A DNA stretch of 64,000 nucleotides from Solirubrobacterales bacterium. GTDB taxonomy: Bacteria; Actinomycetota; Thermoleophilia; Solirubrobacterales; 70-9. Of this stretch, positions 21,856 to 45,276 are shown piece by piece; the first letter of the stretch is position 1; every line of letters starts with the position of its first letter. Both the position numbers and the translations under genes were made by a program. The notes beneath the pieces are model-generated. The model searched no databases. It was not told the DNA's origin and saw nothing but the letters and a program-made list of their open reading frames with translations. The stretch covers positions 262 to 64,261 of the forward strand of contig DATFON010000065.1 of NCBI GenBank assembly GCA_035265465.1. The letters run 5' to 3'.

Positions 21856-24525
21856 ATGGGAAGGAAGCTACTTCTGATACTCGCCCTTGGGGTGCTCGGC
21901 GCCATCGTCGCCGCGGGCGCCGGCGTTGCGAGTGGCGGGCTGCTCGATTCATCCACGAGCGGCGTGTCCGTGAACCTTCCGGGGGGCGAGAACCTCCCGC
22001 CCGTCGAAGCGCTGCCGGCCTGCTCGAATACGAGCGACGACGATGGTGACGGGCTCGTCGACCTCGCGGACCCCGGCTGCTCCGGGCCGCTGGACAGCGA
22101 TGAGTACAACGCGCCGACCGGGACGACCGGCGGCGGCTCGACCGGCACCACGGGCACCACCGGGACCACCGGGACCACCGGGACCACCGGCACCACCGGC
22201 ACCACGGGCACCACGGGGACCACAGGGACGACCGGCACCACCGGGACGACCGGCACCACCGGAAGCGGTGGAGCCGCCGGGCCGGGCGGTTCGGGCGGTT
22301 CGGGCGGTCGGCCGAACGGCGTCGGTCGCGGGGGCCACCGTCACCGCAACGGCAACGGCGGGACGTCGGCCCGCGATCGCACTCCCTCCCCGCCACCGCC
22401 GGTCAAGCCGAACGGGGTGCCCACCAAGTCGAACCCGTCGCTCACCATCGCCACCCCCACCCCGGCCCCCCTTGGTGTCCCGAGCTTCCTCATCGGCCAG
22501 TTCGAGATCCCGCCCTTCCTCCTCCCGATCTATCAGGCCTGCGGCACCGAGTACGGCATCCCCTGGCAGGTCCTGGCCTCGATCAACAAGATCGAGACCG
22601 CATTCGGGACCAACCTCAACGTGTCCTCGGCCGGTGCTCTCGGGTGGATGCAGTTCATGCCTTCGACCTGGCAGGCGTACGGAACGGACGCCAACGGCGA
22701 CGGCCGCAAGGACCCGTACAACCCGGTCGACGCGATCTGCGCAGCCGCCCGGTACCTGAAGGCCGCCGGCGGCGACACCGACCTGCGCAGCGCGATCTTC
22801 GCGTACAACCACGCCACCTGGTACGTGGACGAGGTGCTCCTGTACGCGAACCAGTACGGCAAGCTCCCCGATGACCTCATTGGCTCGATCGGCGCCCTGA
22901 CGACCGGCGATCGCTTCCCCGTCGCCGCCAAGGCCCGGTACGCGGACGAGATCTCCACACGCAAGGCGGCGAAGAACGCGAAGCCGAGCAAGGGCTCGAC
23001 CGGCAACGCCGCCGACATAGTCTCAAGCTCACCTACACGTCGAGGGATCAACATCTACTCGCACGAGGGCGCTCCCGTCGTCGCGGTCAACGACGGAACG
23101 ATCAAGAGGATGGGCCACGATCCGAAGCTCGGCAACTACATCGTCCTCCAGGACAACTACGGCAACCGCTTCACGTATGCGGAGCTCGGCCGCATCTCGA
23201 AGGCGTACCCCGTTCCGAAGCAGAAGCGCAAGCTCTCGGCCGACGACTTCAAGCTGGTCACGCCCAACGACAAGGCCCCGGATCAGCCCGCCACCCGGGG
23301 CAAGCCGCTCGGCGTGAGCAAGCACGCGAGCAAGCTCGCCAGCGACGTGGCCCAGCGCGCGACCCAGGCCGATAAGGCGGAGGCCTCCAAGTCCCAGTCC
23401 TCGAGCTCCAAGTCTCGCAAGCGGCTGGCGGAGTCCAGGGCGGCTCCGGCACCCAGCACATCCGAGGGTCCGGTCAACACCGAGGATCAGCGCCCCCGGC
23501 TGTACGCGCTGCCGGAGCGGCCACACAACGTGGACCGCGCCGACATCACGGGACAGCTCGACACCCTGCTGGCGAAGCGGATGCCCGGGTACTCAACCTT
23601 CAAGTCGTACTTCGGCGGCGTCCTCCGCTTCGATCGCAAGTCGATGGAGCTCCGCCAGCTGCGCAAGGGATCGGAGGTGGTAGCCGGCACCGTACTCGGC
23701 CGCATCGGCAAGACGACCGAGCTGGCCCCCCACCTGAACTTCGCCATCAGGCCCGCGGGCAAGCACACGCCGAAGATCGATCCGAAGCCCATCCTGGACG
23801 GTTGGAAGCTCCTCGAGGAGACGGCGATCTATCGCGCCGCCGGGGAGAACCCCTTCACCGACAGCACGACGACGAGCAACGTCACCCAGGACCTCCTGAT
23901 GCCGAAGACCCAGCTGGCGCGCAGGGTCCTGGCCGATCCGCGGCTCTCCATCTACGCCTGCGGTCGCAACGACATCCGCACCGGCCAGATCGACCAGCGG
24001 GTCCTGGCGGCAATGGAGTACCTGGCCGACAACGGCTTCCGGCTCACGATCACCTCGCTGAAGTGCGGCCACAGCACGCTCACCGCTTCCGGATACGTCA
24101 GCGAGCACTCGACCGGCGACGCGATGGACATCGCCTTGGTGAACGGCATCCCGATAGCCGGTCACCAGGGCCCCGGCTCGATCACCGAGGCGGCGGTCAA
24201 GTCACTGCTTCAGCTCCAGGGATCGATGGAGCCTCACCAGGTCATCTCGCTCATGAATCTCGGCGGCCCGTCGTTCGCCATGGCGGACCACGCGGACCAC
24301 ATCCACGTCGGCTACTACCCGAAGGGCTCGGCGCCCGAGAAGGGCAAGCAGTTCGAGTCGCTGCTGAAGCCCGACCAGTGGAAGAAGCTCATCGGCACGA
24401 TCTCCGAGATCCAGAACCCGAACGTCCCCACCTCGCCTTCGAAGTACTCGCTGCCGGCCAAGAAGGACAAGGGCAAGAAGGACAAGGGCAAGAAGGACGG
24501 CGGCAAGAGCGGGCGCGGCGACTAG
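21856..24525 (+). CDS. secreted multidomain peptidoglycan hydrolase: (GTT)n linker, lytic transglycosylase (SLT-type), split M23 peptidase, LAS/M15-type zinc peptidase, Lys-rich tail
   Basis: 889 aa.
- Signal peptide MGRKLLLILALGVLGAIVAAGAGVASG.
- Transglycosylase: IPWQVLASINKIETAFG...GALGWMQFMPSTWQAYG...DPYNPVDAICAAARYL.
- M23: APVVAVNDGTIKRMGH...GNYIVLQDNYGNRFTYAELG ... GTVLGRIG...HLNFAIRP.
- LAS zinc motifs: SEHSTGDAMDI and DHADHIHVG. Confidence 0.85.
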   Translation: MGRKLLLILALGVLGAIVAAGAGVASGGLLDSSTSGVSVNLPGGENLPPVEALPACSNTSDDDGDGLVDLADPGCSGPLDSDEYNAPTGTTGGGSTGTTGTTGTTGTTGTTGTTGTTGTTGTTGTTGTTGTTGTTGSGGAAGPGGSGGSGGRPNGVGRGGHRHRNGNGGTSARDRTPSPPPPVKPNGVPTKSNPSLTIATPTPAPLGVPSFLIGQFEIPPFLLPIYQACGTEYGIPWQVLASINKIETAFGTNLNVSSAGALGWMQFMPSTWQAYGTDANGDGRKDPYNPVDAICAAARYLKAAGGDTDLRSAIFAYNHATWYVDEVLLYANQYGKLPDDLIGSIGALTTGDRFPVAAKARYADEISTRKAAKNAKPSKGSTGNAADIVSSSPTRRGINIYSHEGAPVVAVNDGTIKRMGHDPKLGNYIVLQDNYGNRFTYAELGRISKAYPVPKQKRKLSADDFKLVTPNDKAPDQPATRGKPLGVSKHASKLASDVAQRATQADKAEASKSQSSSSKSRKRLAESRAAPAPSTSEGPVNTEDQRPRLYALPERPHNVDRADITGQLDTLLAKRMPGYSTFKSYFGGVLRFDRKSMELRQLRKGSEVVAGTVLGRIGKTTELAPHLNFAIRPAGKHTPKIDPKPILDGWKLLEETAIYRAAGENPFTDSTTTSNVTQDLLMPKTQLARRVLADPRLSIYACGRNDIRTGQIDQRVLAAMEYLADNGFRLTITSLKCGHSTLTASGYVSEHSTGDAMDIALVNGIPIAGHQGPGSITEAAVKSLLQLQGSMEPHQVISLMNLGGPSFAMADHADHIHVGYYPKGSAPEKGKQFESLLKPDQWKKLIGTISEIQNPNVPTSPSKYSLPAKKDKGKKDKGKKDGGKSGRGD
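22141..22263 (+). repeat. imperfect 9-bp tandem repeat (ACC GGS ACC)n encoding (Gly-Thr-Thr)x13
   Basis: Read directly: accggcacc acgggcacc accgggacc ... . Synonymous variation between units. Its antisense generates the (VPV)n shadow ORF 21666..22259. Confidence 0.9.
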
Positions 24526-27320: not shown

Positions 27321-28196
27321 TCAGCCTCCGTGTGTGTAGTAGCCCTGGCCGGTCTTCTGGCCGAGATTGCCGGCCTCCACCAGCTCCTTCATCCCCGGAT
27401 GGACGTAGAAGCGGTCGCCGTAGCTGGCCTGCAGATGCTCCGCCACGTGGAGCACCGTGTCCAGCCCGAGCAGATCGGACAGGAAGAACGGGCCCATCGG
27501 GGTCACCTTCGCCTCTGCGATCTCCTTGTCGATCTCCTCGGGCGAGCGTCCGCTCTCGTTCTCGTAGCGCCAGATCTCCGATGCCGCCGAGTTCAGGACC
27601 CGGTTCACCACGAAGCCTGGCTCCTCGCCGCAGCGAATGGGGTTCTTGCGGATCTGCATGGCGAAGTTCGCCGACGCCTGGCTCGTCTCCTCGGACGTGA
27701 ACTCACCCTCGACCACCTCGATCAGCCGCATCACCGAGGCCGGATAGAAGAAGTGGAAGCCGACGACCTGGTCCGGGCGGGTGGTGGCCGATCCGATCTC
27801 TGAGATCGAGAGCGCCGAGGTGTTGGACGCGAGGATCGCATGGCCGGGCGTCACCTCGTCGAGCTCGGCGAAGACCGCCTGCTTGATCTCCATGCGCTCC
27901 GGAACCGCCTCGACGACGAAGTCGACGTCGCCAAAGCCGTCGTACTCGGTGGTGCCGGTTATCCGGCCGAGGATCTCCTCGCCGCGCGTATCAGCCTGCT
28001 CCTGCGTGAGCTTCTCCTTCTTGACCAGGCCGGCGAGCTGGCCCTGCGTGACCTCGCGCGCCTTGGTCAGTCCGGCGTCGATGAACTCCTGCTTCACGTC
28101 CTTCATGACGACGGGCACGTCGGCCGAGGCGATCACCTGCGCGATCTCGCCTCCCATCGTTCCCGCGCCGAGCACGGCGGCCTTGAACACGAACAT
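27321..28196 (-). CDS. 3-hydroxyacyl/3-hydroxybutyryl-CoA dehydrogenase
   Basis: 291 aa. KAAVLGAGTMGGEIAQV Rossmann motif, ASNTSALSI, FHFFYPA, GQKTGQGYY. Confidence 0.9.
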   Translation of the reverse strand: MFVFKAAVLGAGTMGGEIAQVIASADVPVVMKDVKQEFIDAGLTKAREVTQGQLAGLVKKEKLTQEQADTRGEEILGRITGTTEYDGFGDVDFVVEAVPERMEIKQAVFAELDEVTPGHAILASNTSALSISEIGSATTRPDQVVGFHFFYPASVMRLIEVVEGEFTSEETSQASANFAMQIRKNPIRCGEEPGFVVNRVLNSAASEIWRYENESGRSPEEIDKEIAEAKVTPMGPFFLSDLLGLDTVLHVAEHLQASYGDRFYVHPGMKELVEAGNLGQKTGQGYYTHGG

Positions 28197-28212
28197 CGCT
28201 TGCGATCCTCCA

Positions 28213-28390
28213 GGTTGTGTTGATGAGGGGGCGCCAGCCCCCGAAACTGACTGGTGCCGTTGGTTAGTGGTTGTGTTGGTGAGGGGGCGTCAGCCCCGAA
28301 ACTGACTGGTGCCGTTAGTTAGTGGTTGTGTTGGTGAGGGGGCGCTAGCCCCCGAAATTGGCTGGTGCCGTTAGTGATTGTCTTGGTGAG
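28213..28390 (+). repeat. tandem 55-56 bp repeat, 3 full units plus 11-nt partial, each with GGGGGC-NNNN-GCCCCC hairpin embedded in TGATGA...GAAA (hammerhead-core-like)
   Basis: - U1 28213-28268: GGTTGTGTTGATGAGGGGGCGCCAGCCCCCGAAACTGACTGGTGCCGTTGGTTAGT.
- U2 28269-28323: TTGGTGAG, loop GTCA, one C deleted.
- U3 28324-28379: TTGGTGAG, loop GCTA, GAAATTGGC.
- Partial unit: GTCTTGGTGAG. Confidence 0.9.
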
Positions 28391-28417
28391 CCGTTACTGC
28401 CAGTGAGCGCGGGAAGG

Positions 28418-28879
28418 CTATACGGGTTGCGTTCCCGCCGCCGCTTCCTCGACCTCGAGCTTGAGGCGAGCCAGCGAGCGGCCCAGCGACCCCCTCATCT
28501 GCGACCGGATGAAGAGCCTGTCCGTCAGCTTCGCGAACGGCCCGCCCTCGCGCAGCCCGTAATTGAGCTCCTGCTGGACGACCGTCGCGTCACCCTGGAT
28601 CGCAAAGGTGGTGGTGAGCTGCCCGGTGGTCTCCGGGTCCTCGAACGAGACCCGATGGATTCGGCGCGGCTCGTGCTCGACGACCCGCTCGGTGACCGTC
28701 CCCCGGCCTGCAGGAGTCGACACCCATCGCAGCGACCCACCCGCATCCGGATATCCGGTCTCCGACTCGACCCGCCCGAATCCGTCGACCCACGCCGGCC
28801 ATCCCGCGGGGTCGAAGTAGTAATCCCAGACCTCGGCAAGCGAGGCCTTCACCGCCGCCGAGGCCGAGACGCGACTCAT
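28418..28879 (-). CDS. SRPBCC (START/polyketide-cyclase-like) domain protein
   Basis: ATG 28879 overlaps the padR stop (ATGA). MSRVSASAAVKASLAEVWDYYFDPAGWPAWVDGF... is typical of the SRPBCC ligand-binding fold. Confidence 0.7.
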   Translation of the reverse strand: MSRVSASAAVKASLAEVWDYYFDPAGWPAWVDGFGRVESETGYPDAGGSLRWVSTPAGRGTVTERVVEHEPRRIHRVSFEDPETTGQLTTTFAIQGDATVVQQELNYGLREGGPFAKLTDRLFIRSQMRGSLGRSLARLKLEVEEAAAGTQPV

Positions 28880-29379
28880 CGACCTCCCCGGGAGTTCGCG
28901 CGACCGCTGTAGATCTCGCGCTTGATGAGCGTCACTGACTTGATCACCGAGTCCAGGAATGGCTCCATCTCGTCCACCAGCCGCCGATACTCCTTTCGCC
29001 CCGCCGCGGTGATCGAGTAGAAGCGCCGCGTACGGCGATCGGGGTGCTCCCACTGGCCCTCGATCAAGCCGCGGGCCTCGAGGTCGCGAAGGAGTGGGTA
29101 GATCGTGTTGGGGTTCACCGAGATGACCCCGTTCGTGATCCCCTCGATCTCCTCGATCAGCCGGTTGCCGTACGCGGGCTCGCGCTCGATCAGATGCAGC
29201 ACGAGCAGCGGGAACACGTCGCGGCGGCGGATCTCGCCGCCGAAGACGTCCATCGCGCCGCCGCTGCGGCGTCCTGGCTGGCGCGTATCGGCGCTCGCCG
29301 CCCGGGTGCGGGCCGCCCGCGCCGCCTCGGCCACTCGGCGCGAACGAGGACGGGTGCCCTTCTCACGCTCCTGGGCCAT
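28876..29379 (-). CDS. PadR-family transcriptional regulator
   Basis: LLVLHLIEREPAYGNRLIEEIEGITNGVISVNPNTIYPLLRDLEARGLIEGQWE...RRFYSIT winged-helix. The start could instead be ATG 29253 (MDVFGGEIRRRD...); the first 42 aa are R/A-rich. Confidence 0.8.
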   Translation of the reverse strand: MAQEREKGTRPRSRRVAEAARAARTRAASADTRQPGRRSGGAMDVFGGEIRRRDVFPLLVLHLIEREPAYGNRLIEEIEGITNGVISVNPNTIYPLLRDLEARGLIEGQWEHPDRRTRRFYSITAAGRKEYRRLVDEMEPFLDSVIKSVTLIKREIYSGRANSRGGR

Positions 29380-29493
29380 GGGGAGCGACTATACGGTCCG
29401 CCCACGCGGCTGCACCGTTTACGCAGGTGAGGCGGCAGGTGCTCTGTGATCATCCGCACTTCCATCCGCCGCCATCCGGGTGTAGCCTCGTCT

Positions 29494-29602
29494 GGTGAGT
29501 TGATAAGGGGGCGCCAGCCCCCGAAACCGGCAGGTGCTGTCGCTGGTGTGTTGATGAGGGGGCGCCAGCCCCCGAAATTGGCTGGGTGCCGTTGCTGATG
29601 CT
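29494..29602 (+). repeat. two further units of the 28213-type repeat, same orientation
   Basis: - U4 29494-29544: GGTGAGTTGATAAGGGGGCGCCAGCCCCCGAAACCGGCAGGTGCTGTCGCT.
- U5 29545-29602: GGTGTGTTGATGAGGGGGCGCCAGCCCCCGAAATTGGCTGGGTGCCGTTGCTGATGCT.
- The block ends 15 nt before ATG 29618. Confidence 0.9.
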
Positions 29603-29617
29603 GACGAGGAGGACGAG

Positions 29618-29869
29618 ATGGCGAACATGAACATTCAGGACCGGGCGCAGTACGAACGGGCCGACCTGGCCGCGCCCGACAGGAGCTTGCGCGTTACCAG
29701 TCGCCGCCCCGTGACCGTGTTCGTGGCGCTCGGCATGGTCCTGCTGGCCGCACTCGTCTACGCCGTCGCCTGGGGCATCGACGGTTGGGCCCAGGCGCTC
29801 GTTCTCGGTGTGATTGTGGTGACGACGATCGGTCTGATGATCGCGGTGAGCCCGACCCGACGCGCCTAG
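29618..29869 (+). CDS. small two-TM membrane protein
   Basis: 83 aa. GAGGAGG SD a few nt upstream of ATG. TM segments VTVFVALGMVLLAALVYAVAW and ALVLGVIVVTTIGLMIAV. Confidence 0.45.
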   Translation: MANMNIQDRAQYERADLAAPDRSLRVTSRRPVTVFVALGMVLLAALVYAVAWGIDGWAQALVLGVIVVTTIGLMIAVSPTRRA

Positions 29870-29983
29870 ACTCGGTCCTCATCCCAGCGGTGCCTTCCCG
29901 CCCGCGTGGTCGGGTGGTCGGGCAGGTAGGGAATCGCCCCGTCGGGCTTCGCGCGTTTCGGACCCCTCAGAGGGGGTGGCTAT

Positions 29984-42200: not shown

Positions 42201-42934
42201 AGCTCCACGCTGCGCTCGCCCAGCTCGCGGCCCACGGTGGCAACTGGGAAGTGGTCGCGCTCGAGGCAGATGCCTCCGGGAGCCTCGCGGAGCGCGAGGG
42301 CCTCACGGGCAAGATGTGCTTCCCCTACATGATGCAGGGCATGCTCCGCTGGCGCGAGGGCAATTTCGACGAGGCGGCCAAGGGGCTTCGCCGCGCCGCC
42401 GAGCTCGCCGAGCAGGTCGGACGCTCCGAGGTCGCGTTCCAGTCGCTCTACTGGCTGGCCGCGTCGCTTCGCCAGCGGGGCGATCACGCCGACGCCGACA
42501 CGGAGCTTGCCCGCGCCCTCGACCTCTGCGAGCGTGCCGGGCTGGTGGCCCAGTCGATCGAGGCGATCTCCGCCCGCGCCGTGAACCTCGCCCTGGCCGG
42601 ACGCCTGGACGCCGCTCGAGAGGCGGCCGACGAGGCCGAGCGCCTCGCCGACAGGCTGCGTTACCCGGTCGGGAAGGCGGCGAGCCTGGAGGCCCGCGGA
42701 GCGGTCGCCGCGGATACCGCGACTGCAAGCGTCGCCCTGACGGATGCGTACGCCGCCTGGCTGGAGCTTGGGCGCCCGCTTGACGCCGCACGGTGCGAGT
42801 ACCTGCGGGGCAGATTGCTGCGGGAATCCGATCCCGAGGAGGCCCGCCGCGCCCTCGAGGCGGCAGCCTCGGCGGCGGAGGACTACGGCGTCGGTCACCT
42901 GGCGTCGCTGGCTCGCGATTTGATTCCCGCCTGA
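39251..42934 (+). CDS. double zinc-ribbon / class III adenylate-guanylate cyclase / STAND-type AAA NTPase / TPR-repeat protein
   Basis: 1227 aa, GTG start.
- Zinc ribbons: CGSCGTQNPEGARFCMSCG and CPSCGAESPPGAKFCVQCG.
- Cyclase core: VLFADLSGYT...KYIGDNVMAVFGAP...VGINSGEV...IGDVVNVASRLQS.
- Walker A: GQAGVGKT (aa ~329-336).
- Walker B-like: VVIAIEDIHWADE.
- C-terminal ~450 aa: TPR-like helical repeats. Confidence 0.88.
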   Translation: MAGQVCGSCGTQNPEGARFCMSCGAPLATRCPSCGAESPPGAKFCVQCGTSLSASGAAPRGARPAAPPAQPSGAPGGQGRGLFGGQIPGGGAGWGPAGSLPEERRNATVLFADLSGYTAVAERLDPEAVKSFVDRALRRLGQEVVRYGGTVDKYIGDNVMAVFGAPVSHEDDPERAVRAGLAMQAAMDEINTDIEAATGVRFSLRVGINSGEVLAGQVGDGYTVIGDVVNVASRLQSAARPGSVTVGETTHRLTRGPIEYEELKPLSLKGKAEPVPAWEAVRLLVSGTAARGSRSAAPLIGREDESSLLLSLFDRVVREGRPHLVTVIGQAGVGKTRLLREFATRVAEREQMAAFRVGHCPAYGARLAYWALGEIIRGQFEIVDTDDSQLAWAKLLHGIEAVSTKLETDEPPERLAATIARPLGIEPPADLAIATGLHDAEDPQQMRDRLFSAVRSLVEAASKRWPVVIAIEDIHWADEGMLDLIDYMARWIRGPALIVCLARDELLERRPGWGGGRRNYTTIALEPLSQGETRELVTALLPGGNGSSANGHGDLIPQVAERSAGNPLFVEEMVNRIREEGSKDVQTLPESVHAVLAARLDSLSAPERRVLQHASVVGQTFWDGSLVGLEDEEGIDLSDALNELEEKDLVVSSPGSRLAGEHEYVFKHVLIRDVAYSTLPKVVRARRHAQVAAFIEERAAERSEGVVAMVADHYGRAAALGADADVGSAELQAINAKALGALESAGDAAASLYSNQEAIGHYETALSLGRELDSSGSDPSTRAGIAEKLGDVALRLGRVDQATEVWGECLDYHRRQEDLARVGDLHRKIGAGLWHKGDREGSIEHYQKGIDLLKDGPACLELVRLYEEAASLYMHTGDNMLAIYASEKALRLAERLGEAGAASRAHGIFGRVFGRIGDSERARQNLERSVELARDSDPGEAVRALLTLGYHLEVSEADYEGAGAAYREALELAEQTGDLPSKVELHAALAQLAAHGGNWEVVALEADASGSLAEREGLTGKMCFPYMMQGMLRWREGNFDEAAKGLRRAAELAEQVGRSEVAFQSLYWLAASLRQRGDHADADTELARALDLCERAGLVAQSIEAISARAVNLALAGRLDAAREAADEAERLADRLRYPVGKAASLEARGAVAADTATASVALTDAYAAWLELGRPLDAARCEYLRGRLLRESDPEEARRALEAAASAAEDYGVGHLASLARDLIPA

Positions 42935-42977
42935 CCAGCATGTTTCGGGCCTGACGGCCCCTCATTAACATCACTGC

Positions 42978-43795: not shown

Positions 43796-44617
43796 ATGGC
43801 GGCCGTTCAGCGACCCGACGGCGTCGAGCTGGCTCTCCACGAACAGGGCGAGGGGCCGCTCGTGATGCTCGCCCCTTACTGGTCCGGACACCCCGGCGTC
43901 TTCGAGGCCTTCCTCTCGGACCTCGCGCGCGACCACCGAGTCGTCACCTGGGATGCTCGCGGGACGGGCGAGTCCACCCGGGCCGGGCCATACGACAACG
44001 AGACCGACTGTGCCGACCTCGAGGCGATGCTGGATCACGTCGGAGGGGCGAACGCGGTGGTGGCGGTCGCCAACGGCTGCAACGCAGCCGTCCACGTCGC
44101 GGCGCGCAGGCAGGATCTCATCGGGGCGGTAGCTGCATTCGGCGCCGGCCCGTTCGCTCGCATGGACTTCGCCGACAGCGAGGCGATGATCGGCTCCGAC
44201 AGTGTGATCGCGGCGTTCCTCGAGATGCTCCAGCGCGACTATCGCGGTGCCCTCCGCACCGTCGTGACGGCGACGAACACCCAGATGTCCGAGGAGGAGA
44301 TTCGCGACCGAGTCGACTTCCAGACCTCCTACTGTCCGCAGGAGGCGGCGATCGCCCGGGTGCGGGAGTGGGCGGACGACGACCCCACGCAGGCCGCGGC
44401 GGCAATCGGCGATCGGCTGTGGATCTTCTCGGCGCCGGGCGTTGCCGGGCCCTGGCTGCCCCCTCTCGAGGAGCGGCGCCGAATCATCCAGAGAGTCATG
44501 CCGGACGCCAATCTGTATGACATCGACGAGGACATGGGCCCGGTCTCCCGTCCCGACGTCATCGCCGCCGCGATCCGGCGCGTCACCCAATCGGTGCAGC
44601 TCGAGTCGGAGCGCTGA
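43796..44617 (+). CDS. alpha/beta-hydrolase-fold protein (paralog 2, no GXSXG)
   Basis: 273 aa, collinear with paralog 1 (DGVELALHEQGEGPLVML...TWDARGTGES). The elbow reads AVANGCNAAV. Confidence 0.7.
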   Translation: MAAVQRPDGVELALHEQGEGPLVMLAPYWSGHPGVFEAFLSDLARDHRVVTWDARGTGESTRAGPYDNETDCADLEAMLDHVGGANAVVAVANGCNAAVHVAARRQDLIGAVAAFGAGPFARMDFADSEAMIGSDSVIAAFLEMLQRDYRGALRTVVTATNTQMSEEEIRDRVDFQTSYCPQEAAIARVREWADDDPTQAAAAIGDRLWIFSAPGVAGPWLPPLEERRRIIQRVMPDANLYDIDEDMGPVSRPDVIAAAIRRVTQSVQLESER

Positions 44618-44651
44618 GAGGGTTTCGCGCCGGCCGGGCGCGCCTTGTGGC

Positions 44652-44688
44652 AAAAAAGAAGCGGGGCGCTCGCCCGGCGCCCCGCTTC
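44652..44688 (-). terminator. intrinsic terminator (hairpin plus T6 on minus strand)
   Basis: GAAGCGGGGCGC-TCGCCCG-GCGCCCCGCTTC, 12-bp stem. On the minus strand it is followed by TTTTTT (44652-44657). Downstream of the SCP2/ACAD operon. Confidence 0.65.
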
Positions 44689-44826
44689 CCGCATGGGAGG
44701 TGCCCCGCGGGGTCTCGCTTTGGGAACCCCGCAGTCCTTTGGATGTGCAACGCGATGATCGACCCGGTGCGGATCCGCCTAAAGGCGCTTCTACTGAGTC
44801 TGGACGTTTGTTCGACCCCGCGAGTC

Positions 44827-45276
44827 TCAGCCGGTTGGGATCGCGAACATCGACTGGATCTGGGCGGAGAACATCAAATCGCCCTCGATCTTCAGCTTGC
44901 CTCTCATGAACATCATCGGGCCGCTGGCATTCCCGGTGACGAGCTTCAGGAAGTCGACTCCGGTCAGCTTCAGGGTGGCCCGCGGTTCCGACTTCGGCTC
45001 CGGGCTCGTCGCGCACGTACCGTCGGCGACCACCACCTCCCAATGGTCTTCGCCGCCATCGGAGCGTCCGGTGATCCTCCAGTGGATCACCGCCGACTGC
45101 CCGGCGCCACCGCGATAGTGCTCTTCCATGCGCTTGAAGATCTCGCCGATGATCTGATCGCGCAGCGGGCCCTCCATCGCCTCGCGAAGCTGCTCATCCG
45201 TCGCCTGCCCGATGCTCCGCGCGAACTCCTCGGGATCGACTGCGGAGGTGTCGATCGACTCCGTGTCGCTGCTCAC
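44827..45276 (-). CDS. SCP2 sterol/lipid-binding domain protein
   Basis: GTG 45276, 18 nt after the ACAD stop. ...ATLKLTGVDFLKLVTGNASGPMMFMRGKLKIEGDLMFSAQIQSMF is the classic SCP2 C-terminus. Confidence 0.72.
   Translation of the reverse strand: MSSDTESIDTSAVDPEEFARSIGQATDEQLREAMEGPLRDQIIGEIFKRMEEHYRGGAGQSAVIHWRITGRSDGGEDHWEVVVADGTCATSPEPKSEPRATLKLTGVDFLKLVTGNASGPMMFMRGKLKIEGDLMFSAQIQSMFAIPTG

Follow-up and report, generated by a model that had tools for sequence, protein, structure and literature searches.

The 64,000-nucleotide stretch analyzed here (hereafter the window; contig DATFON010000065.1 of a Solirubrobacterales bacterium, positions 262 to 64,261) contains two same-orientation blocks of a short repeat, block 1 beginning at 28213 and block 2 at 29493, on either side of a gene pair encoding a PadR-family regulator and an SRPBCC protein. 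The units belong to a dispersed family of non-coding repeats of about 50-56 bp in the Solirubrobacterales, similar to repetitive extragenic palindromic (REP) sequences and mycobacterial interspersed repetitive units (MIRU), and are not the ribozymes that their likeness to a hammerhead core had suggested. The reading that best accounts for the data is that the family is mobile and prefers promoter and leader positions. It is this position that was unexpected: at several unrelated genes, the arrays fill exactly the gap between the -10 box and the start codon.

Tandem Repeats Finder delineated a tandem block at 28213-28375 (period 55, 2.9 copies, 91% matches, score 277), a repeat search of the window returned five in-register plus-strand copies starting at 28213, 28268, 28324, 29493, and 29544, and the 20-mer GGGGGCGCCAGCCCCCGAAA occurred four times with up to three mismatches, against 0.03 expected. 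These results bear out the five full units in two plus-strand blocks reported in a preliminary description of this DNA. U1 (28213-28268, nhmmer E=1.4e-14) reads TTGATGA-GGGGGC GCCA GCCCCC-GAAAC-TGACTGGTGCCGTT-GGTTAGT. U2 (28269-28323, E=3.4e-14) has a hairpin whose 3' arm is short by one C, U3 (28324-28380, E=6.7e-15) has the loop GCTA, U4 (29493-29543, E=8.2e-12) carries the tail CCGGCAGGTGCTGTC, and the tail of U5 (29544-29601, E=8.3e-14) contains one extra G. The core variants had been read correctly (TTGATGA in U1 and U5, TTGGTGA in U2 and U3, TTGATAA in U4), as had the A-C mismatch (GACTGG) in U1 and U2 and the 15-nt gap, containing GAGGAGG, that separates the end of the right block from the ATG at 29618. 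A partial unit is also present, but it is 22 nt long instead of the 11 nt first given and lacks the core (28381-28402, plus strand); its 5' flank TCTTGGTGA is fused straight to the tail GCCGTTACTG. Searching the 64 kb with a family profile (nhmmer) added one truncated minus-strand copy at 42934-42975 (E=1.7e-5), GATGTTAATGAGGGGCCGTCAGGCCCGAAACATG without the tail, and no family copy beyond this one and the units of the two blocks.

An exact 23-mer of the repeat was found in two Actinomycetota metagenome-assembled genomes (MAGs), and a degenerate 22-mer drawn from the tail retrieved at least 120 soil-metagenome loci. Loci and contigs collected from relatives are designated by L-numbers, and the family counts given below rest on the matches listed. 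At least 178 copies were detected by nhmmer in 0.8 Mb of collected loci, and these 178 copies make up 142 arrays (112 with one unit, 25 with two, 4 with three, and 1 with four). With L126-L128 added, the 144 arrays cluster by their flanks into at least 59 independent sites. All arrays are direct tandems of one to four units with periods of 49-56 nt. Unit number differs at 17 of the 32 sites represented by more than one contig, and a single unit is present or absent at otherwise conserved sites in three comparisons (L009 and L026 versus L036 and L066; L016, L113, and L036 versus L009; L123 versus L117). In these comparisons, the insert is an asymmetric segment of ~49-55 nt bounded by no terminal inverted repeats and accompanied by no consistent target duplication. 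The suggestion of a new REP- or MITE-like structured repeat is thus essentially supported for its REP part but not for a MITE (miniature inverted-repeat transposable element), which fails on both of these features. One repeat copy does lie inside a ~250-bp MITE-like element (L001:150-470, L002:4880-5077, and L008); this element has ~36-nt terminal inverted repeats, CTAGTGGTGCCTCTCATGACGTTGTGCCGGAAATGG ... CCATTTACGGTGCAACGTTGTGAGAGGCACCACTA, and occurs in at least two contigs of one MAG. A CRISPR array was rejected because the would-be spacers are conserved: the segment between hairpins is the most conserved part, and the arrays have only one to four units. The repeat had no match in a plasmid collection and its sequence none in the literature, and the family is apparently an undescribed short repeat of soil Solirubrobacterales (Thermoleophilia, Actinomycetota).

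The anatomy of the unit was examined in an alignment of 150 distinct copies from soil metagenomes and MAGs (alignment A1). A loose, G/T-rich 5' flank is followed by TGA, a GC hairpin of 5-6 bp, GAAAC, the tail TGGCTGGTGCCGTT, and ~10 looser bases; only TGA, the covarying hairpin, GAAAC, and the tail are conserved across copies. The three bases of TGA, which lies in the foot motif (G/A)TGA 5' of the hairpin, are kept in 147, 145, and 145 of the 150 copies, and those of the GAA after the hairpin (columns 35-37) in 150, 149, and 150. About 94-96% of the cells in the 14-16-nt hairpin are paired, compared with 31-57% when the partner is slid, and the inner pairs covary, with 73 copies showing CG and 56 showing GC at pair 23-30 and a single copy showing GGAGC/GCTCC. 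The core is still nearly invariant in 21 copies obtained outside the search-pattern selection. Of 53 within-contig pairs, 44 share the same hairpin length class, as opposed to 50% between contigs; subfamilies therefore tend to be genome-specific, with some contigs mixing types. Each unit also holds three TGGTG microrepeats. Peptide coding was excluded, as the reading frame changes between the 14-nt and 16-nt variants of the hairpin. A switch based on a mutually exclusive 9-bp helix, GCGCCAGCC/GGCTGGTGC, was rejected as well, the helix being paired in 69%, which equals shuffles, with no compensatory change. Pairing of the 5' flank with ACUGGC, which is G-U-rich and available on the plus strand only, reaches 79% compared with 10-53% for slid controls and shows no covariation. 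This offers weak support for an extended plus-strand helix with a GA/GAA internal loop, of k-turn or loop-E type, that would compete with stem III of a hammerhead fold.

The resemblance to the hammerhead that had been pointed out is real. UGA, the GC stem, and GAAA take the places of N7-G8-A9, stem II, and G12-A13-A14-A15.1 in the ribozymes modeled by Rfam (Hammerhead_1, _3, and _II, HH9, and HH10); UGA and GAAA are conserved in A1, and the stem covaries between CG and GC. A stem III of 3-4 bp (GGC/GCC plus U-G) also fits, but it is nearly invariant and lies inside the search pattern, and an alternative pairing with the 5' flank competes with it. Block 2 is probably transcribed on the plus strand, given a -10-like box at 29483. 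However, cmscan against all 4227 Rfam families gave no gathering-level match in the window, and at E<=10 neither a hammerhead nor any other Rfam match on the repeats was found in 27900-29900 or on the repeats of six other array-bearing loci. Such an absence of covariance-model matches above noise had been named at the outset as grounds for refutation. The CUGANGA core is found in none of the 150 copies and NUGANGA in seven; the would-be C3, U4, G5, and A6 are unconserved (C 39, T 76, G 111, and A 28 of 150), with G in the A6 position in 113. The TTGATGA of U1 and U5 is a local variant, the usual form being GGTGA. Across relatives, then, the GC stem, TGA, and GAAAC hold up but the upstream half of the proposed TGATGA core does not. 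Stem I is missing, as the preliminary description had itself conceded, and the flanks of the units are direct repeats, both in the window and in A1. Most copies are, moreover, antisense to local transcription. The proposal that the units are degenerate or unusual hammerhead-derived ribozymes expressed from the plus strand is refuted at the sequence level and retains next to no probability; it can be dropped, which removes a false ribozyme lead.

The orientation of the arrays is biased with respect to the flanking genes. At the 59 non-redundant sites, the neighbor on the TGA side is encoded on the opposite strand 33 times and on the same strand 11 times (p=0.0013), the corresponding figures on the other side being 23 and 16, and at 72 loci versus 32 the greater part of the coding bases is on the strand opposite to the plus orientation of the repeat. 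The complement of the 'hammerhead' strand is therefore usually co-transcribed. On short contigs, a replication-strand bias and a transcription-strand bias are inseparable. When the repeat is read in reverse complement, a start codon follows TCA within 1-15 nt in 20 of the 58 arrays that have a downstream co-directional open reading frame (ORF), with a sharp mode at 9 nt. This 1-15 nt class comprises at least seven unrelated genes with genuine-looking N-termini (SurE, thiolase, and others), and the CA-rich spacer between TCA and the start codon contains no GGAGG-like Shine-Dalgarno (SD) sequence. A TANNNT box is located at -30 to -8 relative to the upstream end of the array in 12 of these 20 cases, compared with 1.4% expected; the background is 0.06% per position. 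Within 45 nt upstream, the box precedes 26 of 112 arrays in the reverse-complement orientation and 6 of 120 in the plus orientation. TCACCA at -12 to -7 in the 9-nt class was considered and is not a -10 box. A full sigma-70 scan found no promoter, and neither a sigma-70-type promoter nor an intrinsic terminator was found inside the units. TANNNT is depleted in the window (91 on both strands versus 224 +/- 13 in dinucleotide-preserving shuffles), and several of the few occurrences lie 6-8 nt before start codons (29388-29393; 42966-42971), which suggests that many genes of this organism are leaderless. In a second class of arrays, the -10 box comes right after TCA and is followed by 6-7 nt and the ATG (the truncated copy in the window, L020/L118, L011, and L039). 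In L004 (6625-6750), a thiolase gene and a small membrane ORF are divergently oriented, and the 120 nt separating them are made up entirely of two units, with TACCTT between the units; both promoters would accordingly have to lie within or between units.

Orthologous genes with and without the element indicate precisely where it sits. A -10 box close to the ATG without an SD sequence is the arrangement of leaderless genes in actinobacterial transcription. SurE genes free of the element show this arrangement: L131 has TAGAAT-cgaaccgc-ATG (N8), and L134/L135 have TACAAT-cgactcg-ATG (N7), in both cases without an SD sequence. In L107, L055, L057, and L062, one or two units, and in L129/L130 four, are situated between TAGAAT-cgggac and the SurE ATG. 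An unrelated, hairpin-rich insert of ~60 nt occupies the place between TAGAAT-cgggagg and the SurE ATG in L132:9941-10000 and L133:8602-8652; the promoter-to-ATG junction of a leaderless SurE gene has thus been hit by two different inserts. The same contrast is seen for a PafBC-like WYL regulator. Empty alleles are found in L137 (TATGCT-cagccgc-GTG GCC AAG, N7), L138, and L139, whereas the filled allele is TATATT-cagccac-GTG-[unit]-ATG GCC AAG in L110, with a similar one in L136, which places the unit exactly between the old start codon or transcription start site and the new ATG. The old GTG of L110 begins a frame of nine codons that is closed by the TAA of the hairpin loop, 18 nt before the new PafBC ATG. 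For both genes, the element fills the exact gap between the -10-like box and the start codon, and the relatives without it are of the leaderless type.

These allele pairs raise the possibility, speculative and in our judgment unlikely, that the repeat is a mobile SD-less 5' leader that inserts at either border of the melted DNA in the promoters of leaderless genes, at +1 or immediately upstream of the -10 box, and turns these genes into leadered ones. If so, expression would depend on the element, through the hairpin positioned ~12 nt ahead of the AUG, the CA-rich spacer, the stop codon in the loop, or a binding factor; the loop stop codon would allow termination and reinitiation. The Solirubrobacterales would then possess a portable post-transcriptional regulon and a natural experiment on the interconversion of leaderless and leadered translation.

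For the mobile repeat family that we favor, the following course is proposed. A host or element enzyme, recognizing the hairpin and the invariant flanks, would move a unit in trans, possibly into single-stranded DNA exposed at open promoters; a mobile element aimed at open promoter complexes is also hinted at by the promoter placement itself. Arrays could change in size, and core-less remnants could arise, by slippage involving the TGGTG microrepeats. Most copies would be transcribed as the complement, forming an SD-less 5' leader or an intercistronic spacer. The enzyme could be a RAYT, an IS200/IS605-like Y1 transposase encoded elsewhere in these genomes, in which case the units would form a classical REP/REPIN family. 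Such an origin would agree with the short GC hairpin and its invariant foot (G/A)TGA, comparable to the GTAG of REPs, with the lack of terminal inverted repeats and of a clear target duplication, and with a biased strand distribution with respect to genes and GC skew (65 versus 38 loci), as single-strand transposition coupled to replication yields such a bias. Yet a motif search of 0.82 Mb enriched for copies found no RAYT- or IS200-like ORF, the units are direct tandems and not inverted pairs, the hairpin is much shorter than those of REPs, and the best conserved part is the non-palindromic 20-nt tail. We therefore consider a RAYT-mobilized family improbable. The gene between inverted copies in L040 and L081 encodes an ordinary HNH protein.

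Several observations weigh against mobility with a promoter preference. A regular-expression search for HUH plus Y motifs in six-frame ORFs of the 0.82 Mb returned only a LexA false positive, and since no transposase or RAYT-like gene was found there, the mobilizing activity is purely an inference. The unit boundaries in the three filled/empty comparisons are fuzzy, and neither a target sequence nor a duplication recurs consistently. The promoters and start sites were assigned from motifs, metagenome assemblies can collapse tandem repeats, and selecting the sample with a pattern inside the tail inflates the apparent conservation of the tail. Furthermore, the copies flanking the padR-SRPBCC pair occupy the same two positions in species only ~80% identical, and conservation of the core far exceeds that of neutral intergenic DNA. 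Such orthologous retention and core conservation would be explained by a selected cis-acting function at least as well as by selfish mobility.

The main rival is a cis-acting RNA element, a shared 5' leader or intercistronic module that one trans-acting protein or small RNA would recognize through its hairpin and invariant flanks, or that would aid SD-independent translation. The genes carrying it would form a post-transcriptional regulon, and spread and copy-number change would be secondary. We hold this to be a minority prospect; it is compatible with mobility and favored by the long retention at orthologous sites. In at least five gene families, the interval from the -10 box to the start codon is exactly where the element lies, the stretch from hairpin to AUG is CA-rich and unpaired in centroid folds, and the loop of the reverse-complement hairpin is usually a stop codon (TAA, TGA, or TAG), which in L110 ends the leaderless mini-ORF. 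However, about one quarter of the sites have the opposite orientation, many copies are located at gene 3' ends or between convergent genes, the genes involved share no evident function, and the element has no known binding partner. Apart from the hairpin, reverse-complement leaders fold no better than shuffled sequences (z ~0). Comparing G-U with A-C mismatches gave no signal for the strand of function: the search pattern fixes the 3' arm, and in the 21 unbiased copies both arms are affected, which makes the test uninformative. The mobile repeat family remains our preferred reading.

In the window, the two blocks are embedded in genes that relatives share. The 3-hydroxyacyl-CoA dehydrogenase (3HCDH) gene (27321-28196, minus strand) has its SD sequence GGAGGA and ATG after block 1 on the minus strand. 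The SRPBCC gene (Polyketide_cyc2, PF10604; 28418-28879) and the PadR-family regulator gene (PF03551; 28876-29379), both on the minus strand, were annotated from contigs encoding an identical 3HCDH protein, where the neighbors also include ECH and SIR2; the proteins of the window are identical to those of a Solirubrobacterales MAG. A small membrane ORF of 83 aa (29618-29869, plus strand) lies 3' of block 2 and is conserved in L027 and L077. Three motif-defined boxes accompany these genes. The minus-strand TAGCCT at 28415-28420, which overlaps the stop codon of the SRPBCC gene, precedes block 1 and is conserved in L027 and L077; by this motif, block 1 may be a minus-strand leader or spacer of the 3HCDH operon. 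A second TAGCCT, at 29483-29488 on the plus strand and 5 nt upstream of U4, is likewise conserved in both (TGTAGCCT), so that block 2 would be a plus-strand leader of the small ORF. TATAGT at 29388-29393 on the minus strand, 8 nt before the padR ATG (29379), is of the leaderless type and not part of the repeat.

Comparison of relatives bears on whether the units serve the cassette. L027 and L077, from species ~80% identical, carry both blocks where the window does, with 3+2 and 1+1 units, and their hairpin is GGGGC-TTTA-GCCCC as against GGGGGC-GCCA-GCCCCC in the window. Among contigs with an identical 3HCDH protein, block 1 has three units in the window and L120, two in L128, and none in L126, which retains the core-less partial unit only. 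The padR-SRPBCC cassette is present in L027, L077, and L126. Same-orientation blocks flank it in the window, L027, and L077, which is what one would expect of operator arrays for the adjacent PadR or of recombination sites mobilizing the cassette. Nevertheless, the same units stand beside unrelated genes at 59 independent sites, padR has a predicted leaderless-type promoter of its own, ~100 nt from block 2, and the cassette is found in every relative compared, with only unit number changing. Both roles are thus most unlikely: dispersal to more than 50 unrelated sites excludes binding sites specific to padR, and the proposed comparison of cassette presence or absence turned up no recombinational gain or loss. 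On a further contig with an identical 3HCDH gene, the assembly ends 26 nt upstream of the start codon of this gene, where block 1 begins (L127:1-30), which points to the repeat as the cause of a break in short-read assembly.

The truncated copy at 42934-42975 has its TGA side toward the start of a plus-strand alpha/beta-hydrolase gene (ATG 42978), and the site is filled by full copies in L118 and L020. Directly after the TCA of this copy, the leaderless-type box TAACAT (42966-42971, plus strand) ends 6 nt before the ATG. Farther downstream, at 44615-44655, the window has TGAGAGGGTTTCGCGCCGGCCGGGCGCGCCTTGTGG where L118 and L020 carry a full copy overlapping the end of a second alpha/beta-hydrolase gene, the TAG of its loop being the stop codon of that gene; TGAGAGGGTTTCGCGCCGGCCGGGCGCGCCTTGTGG, which nhmmer does not detect, may be a decayed relic of the repeat. 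A conserved non-coding stretch 3' of the alpha/beta-hydrolase gene (44650-44770) is common to the window, L118, L020, and L065. It contains two strong hairpins, GAAGCGGGGCGC-TCGCCCG-GCGCCCCGCTTC and GGTGCCCCGCGGGG...AACCCCGCAG, matches no Rfam family at the gathering threshold, and could be a terminator or a small RNA. A short-chain dehydrogenase gene of ~1 kb on the minus strand follows in the relatives (L118:9209-10248, L020:1661-2764, and L065:735-1784), and the window has only ~20-90 nt at this point (44815-44837); the difference is a one-gene insertion/deletion between related species. Elsewhere in the window, a 9-nt tandem repeat, ACCGGCACC, extends over 13.6 copies at 22141-22262 and also displays a 45-nt periodicity. 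GGCACCA in the repeat raised the idea of a tRNA-related or primer-binding-site element; the one ARAGORN call on the window, a 'tRNA-???' with a four-base anticodon (gtcc) at 2632-2730 on the minus strand, is probably false and is unrelated to the repeats.

These results define a repeat family with a clear consensus in a poorly studied, mostly uncultured soil order, which helps annotation. The family also matters for assembly, given that contig L127 terminates in the block 1 repeat, and unit number could serve strain typing in the manner of variable-number tandem repeat (VNTR) markers. If the promoter placement is confirmed, the SurE and PafBC loci would provide natural pairs of leaderless and leadered alleles of the same gene.

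Among known systems, the family works most like MIRU, being tandem, VNTR-like, and intercistronic, together with REP, and it lacks defining features of each. With the Mycobacterium MIRU minisatellites, compared by organization alone, it shares direct tandem intergenic units of the 40-100 bp class in an actinobacterium, strain-to-strain variation in unit number, an orientation bias toward the flanking genes, and the habit of often filling the whole space from a stop codon to the next start. Unlike MIRU, the repeat described here has a covarying GC hairpin and a nearly invariant tail, its periods are not multiples of three, and most sites hold a single unit. The small ORFs of MIRU couple the flanking genes, whereas block 1 is not spanned by any minus-strand ORF; the window units contain stop codons in all frames, and coupling mini-ORFs are generally lacking, the nine-codon frame of L110 being a special case. 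The REP/REPIN-RAYT systems of Proteobacteria likewise have a short GC-rich hairpin with an invariant foot motif, many extragenic copies, genome-specific subfamilies, and a strand bias, and lack terminal inverted repeats and target duplications. They differ in forming inverted pairs (BIME/REPIN), in the foot GTAG instead of TGA, in a stem longer than 5-6 bp with no conserved 20-nt tail after it, in the associated RAYT, and in their location mainly at gene 3' ends, in contrast to the promoter and leader positions favored here. The Correia (CREE/NEMIS) and ERIC/IRU elements are also small non-coding repeats that occur in 5' leaders or intercistronic RNA, with orientation-dependent effects on expression possible. 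Those elements, however, are MITEs of 100-150 bp that have terminal inverted repeats and duplicate a TA or similar target, whereas the Solirubrobacterales repeat is a ~50-bp, asymmetric unit that can be amplified in tandem.

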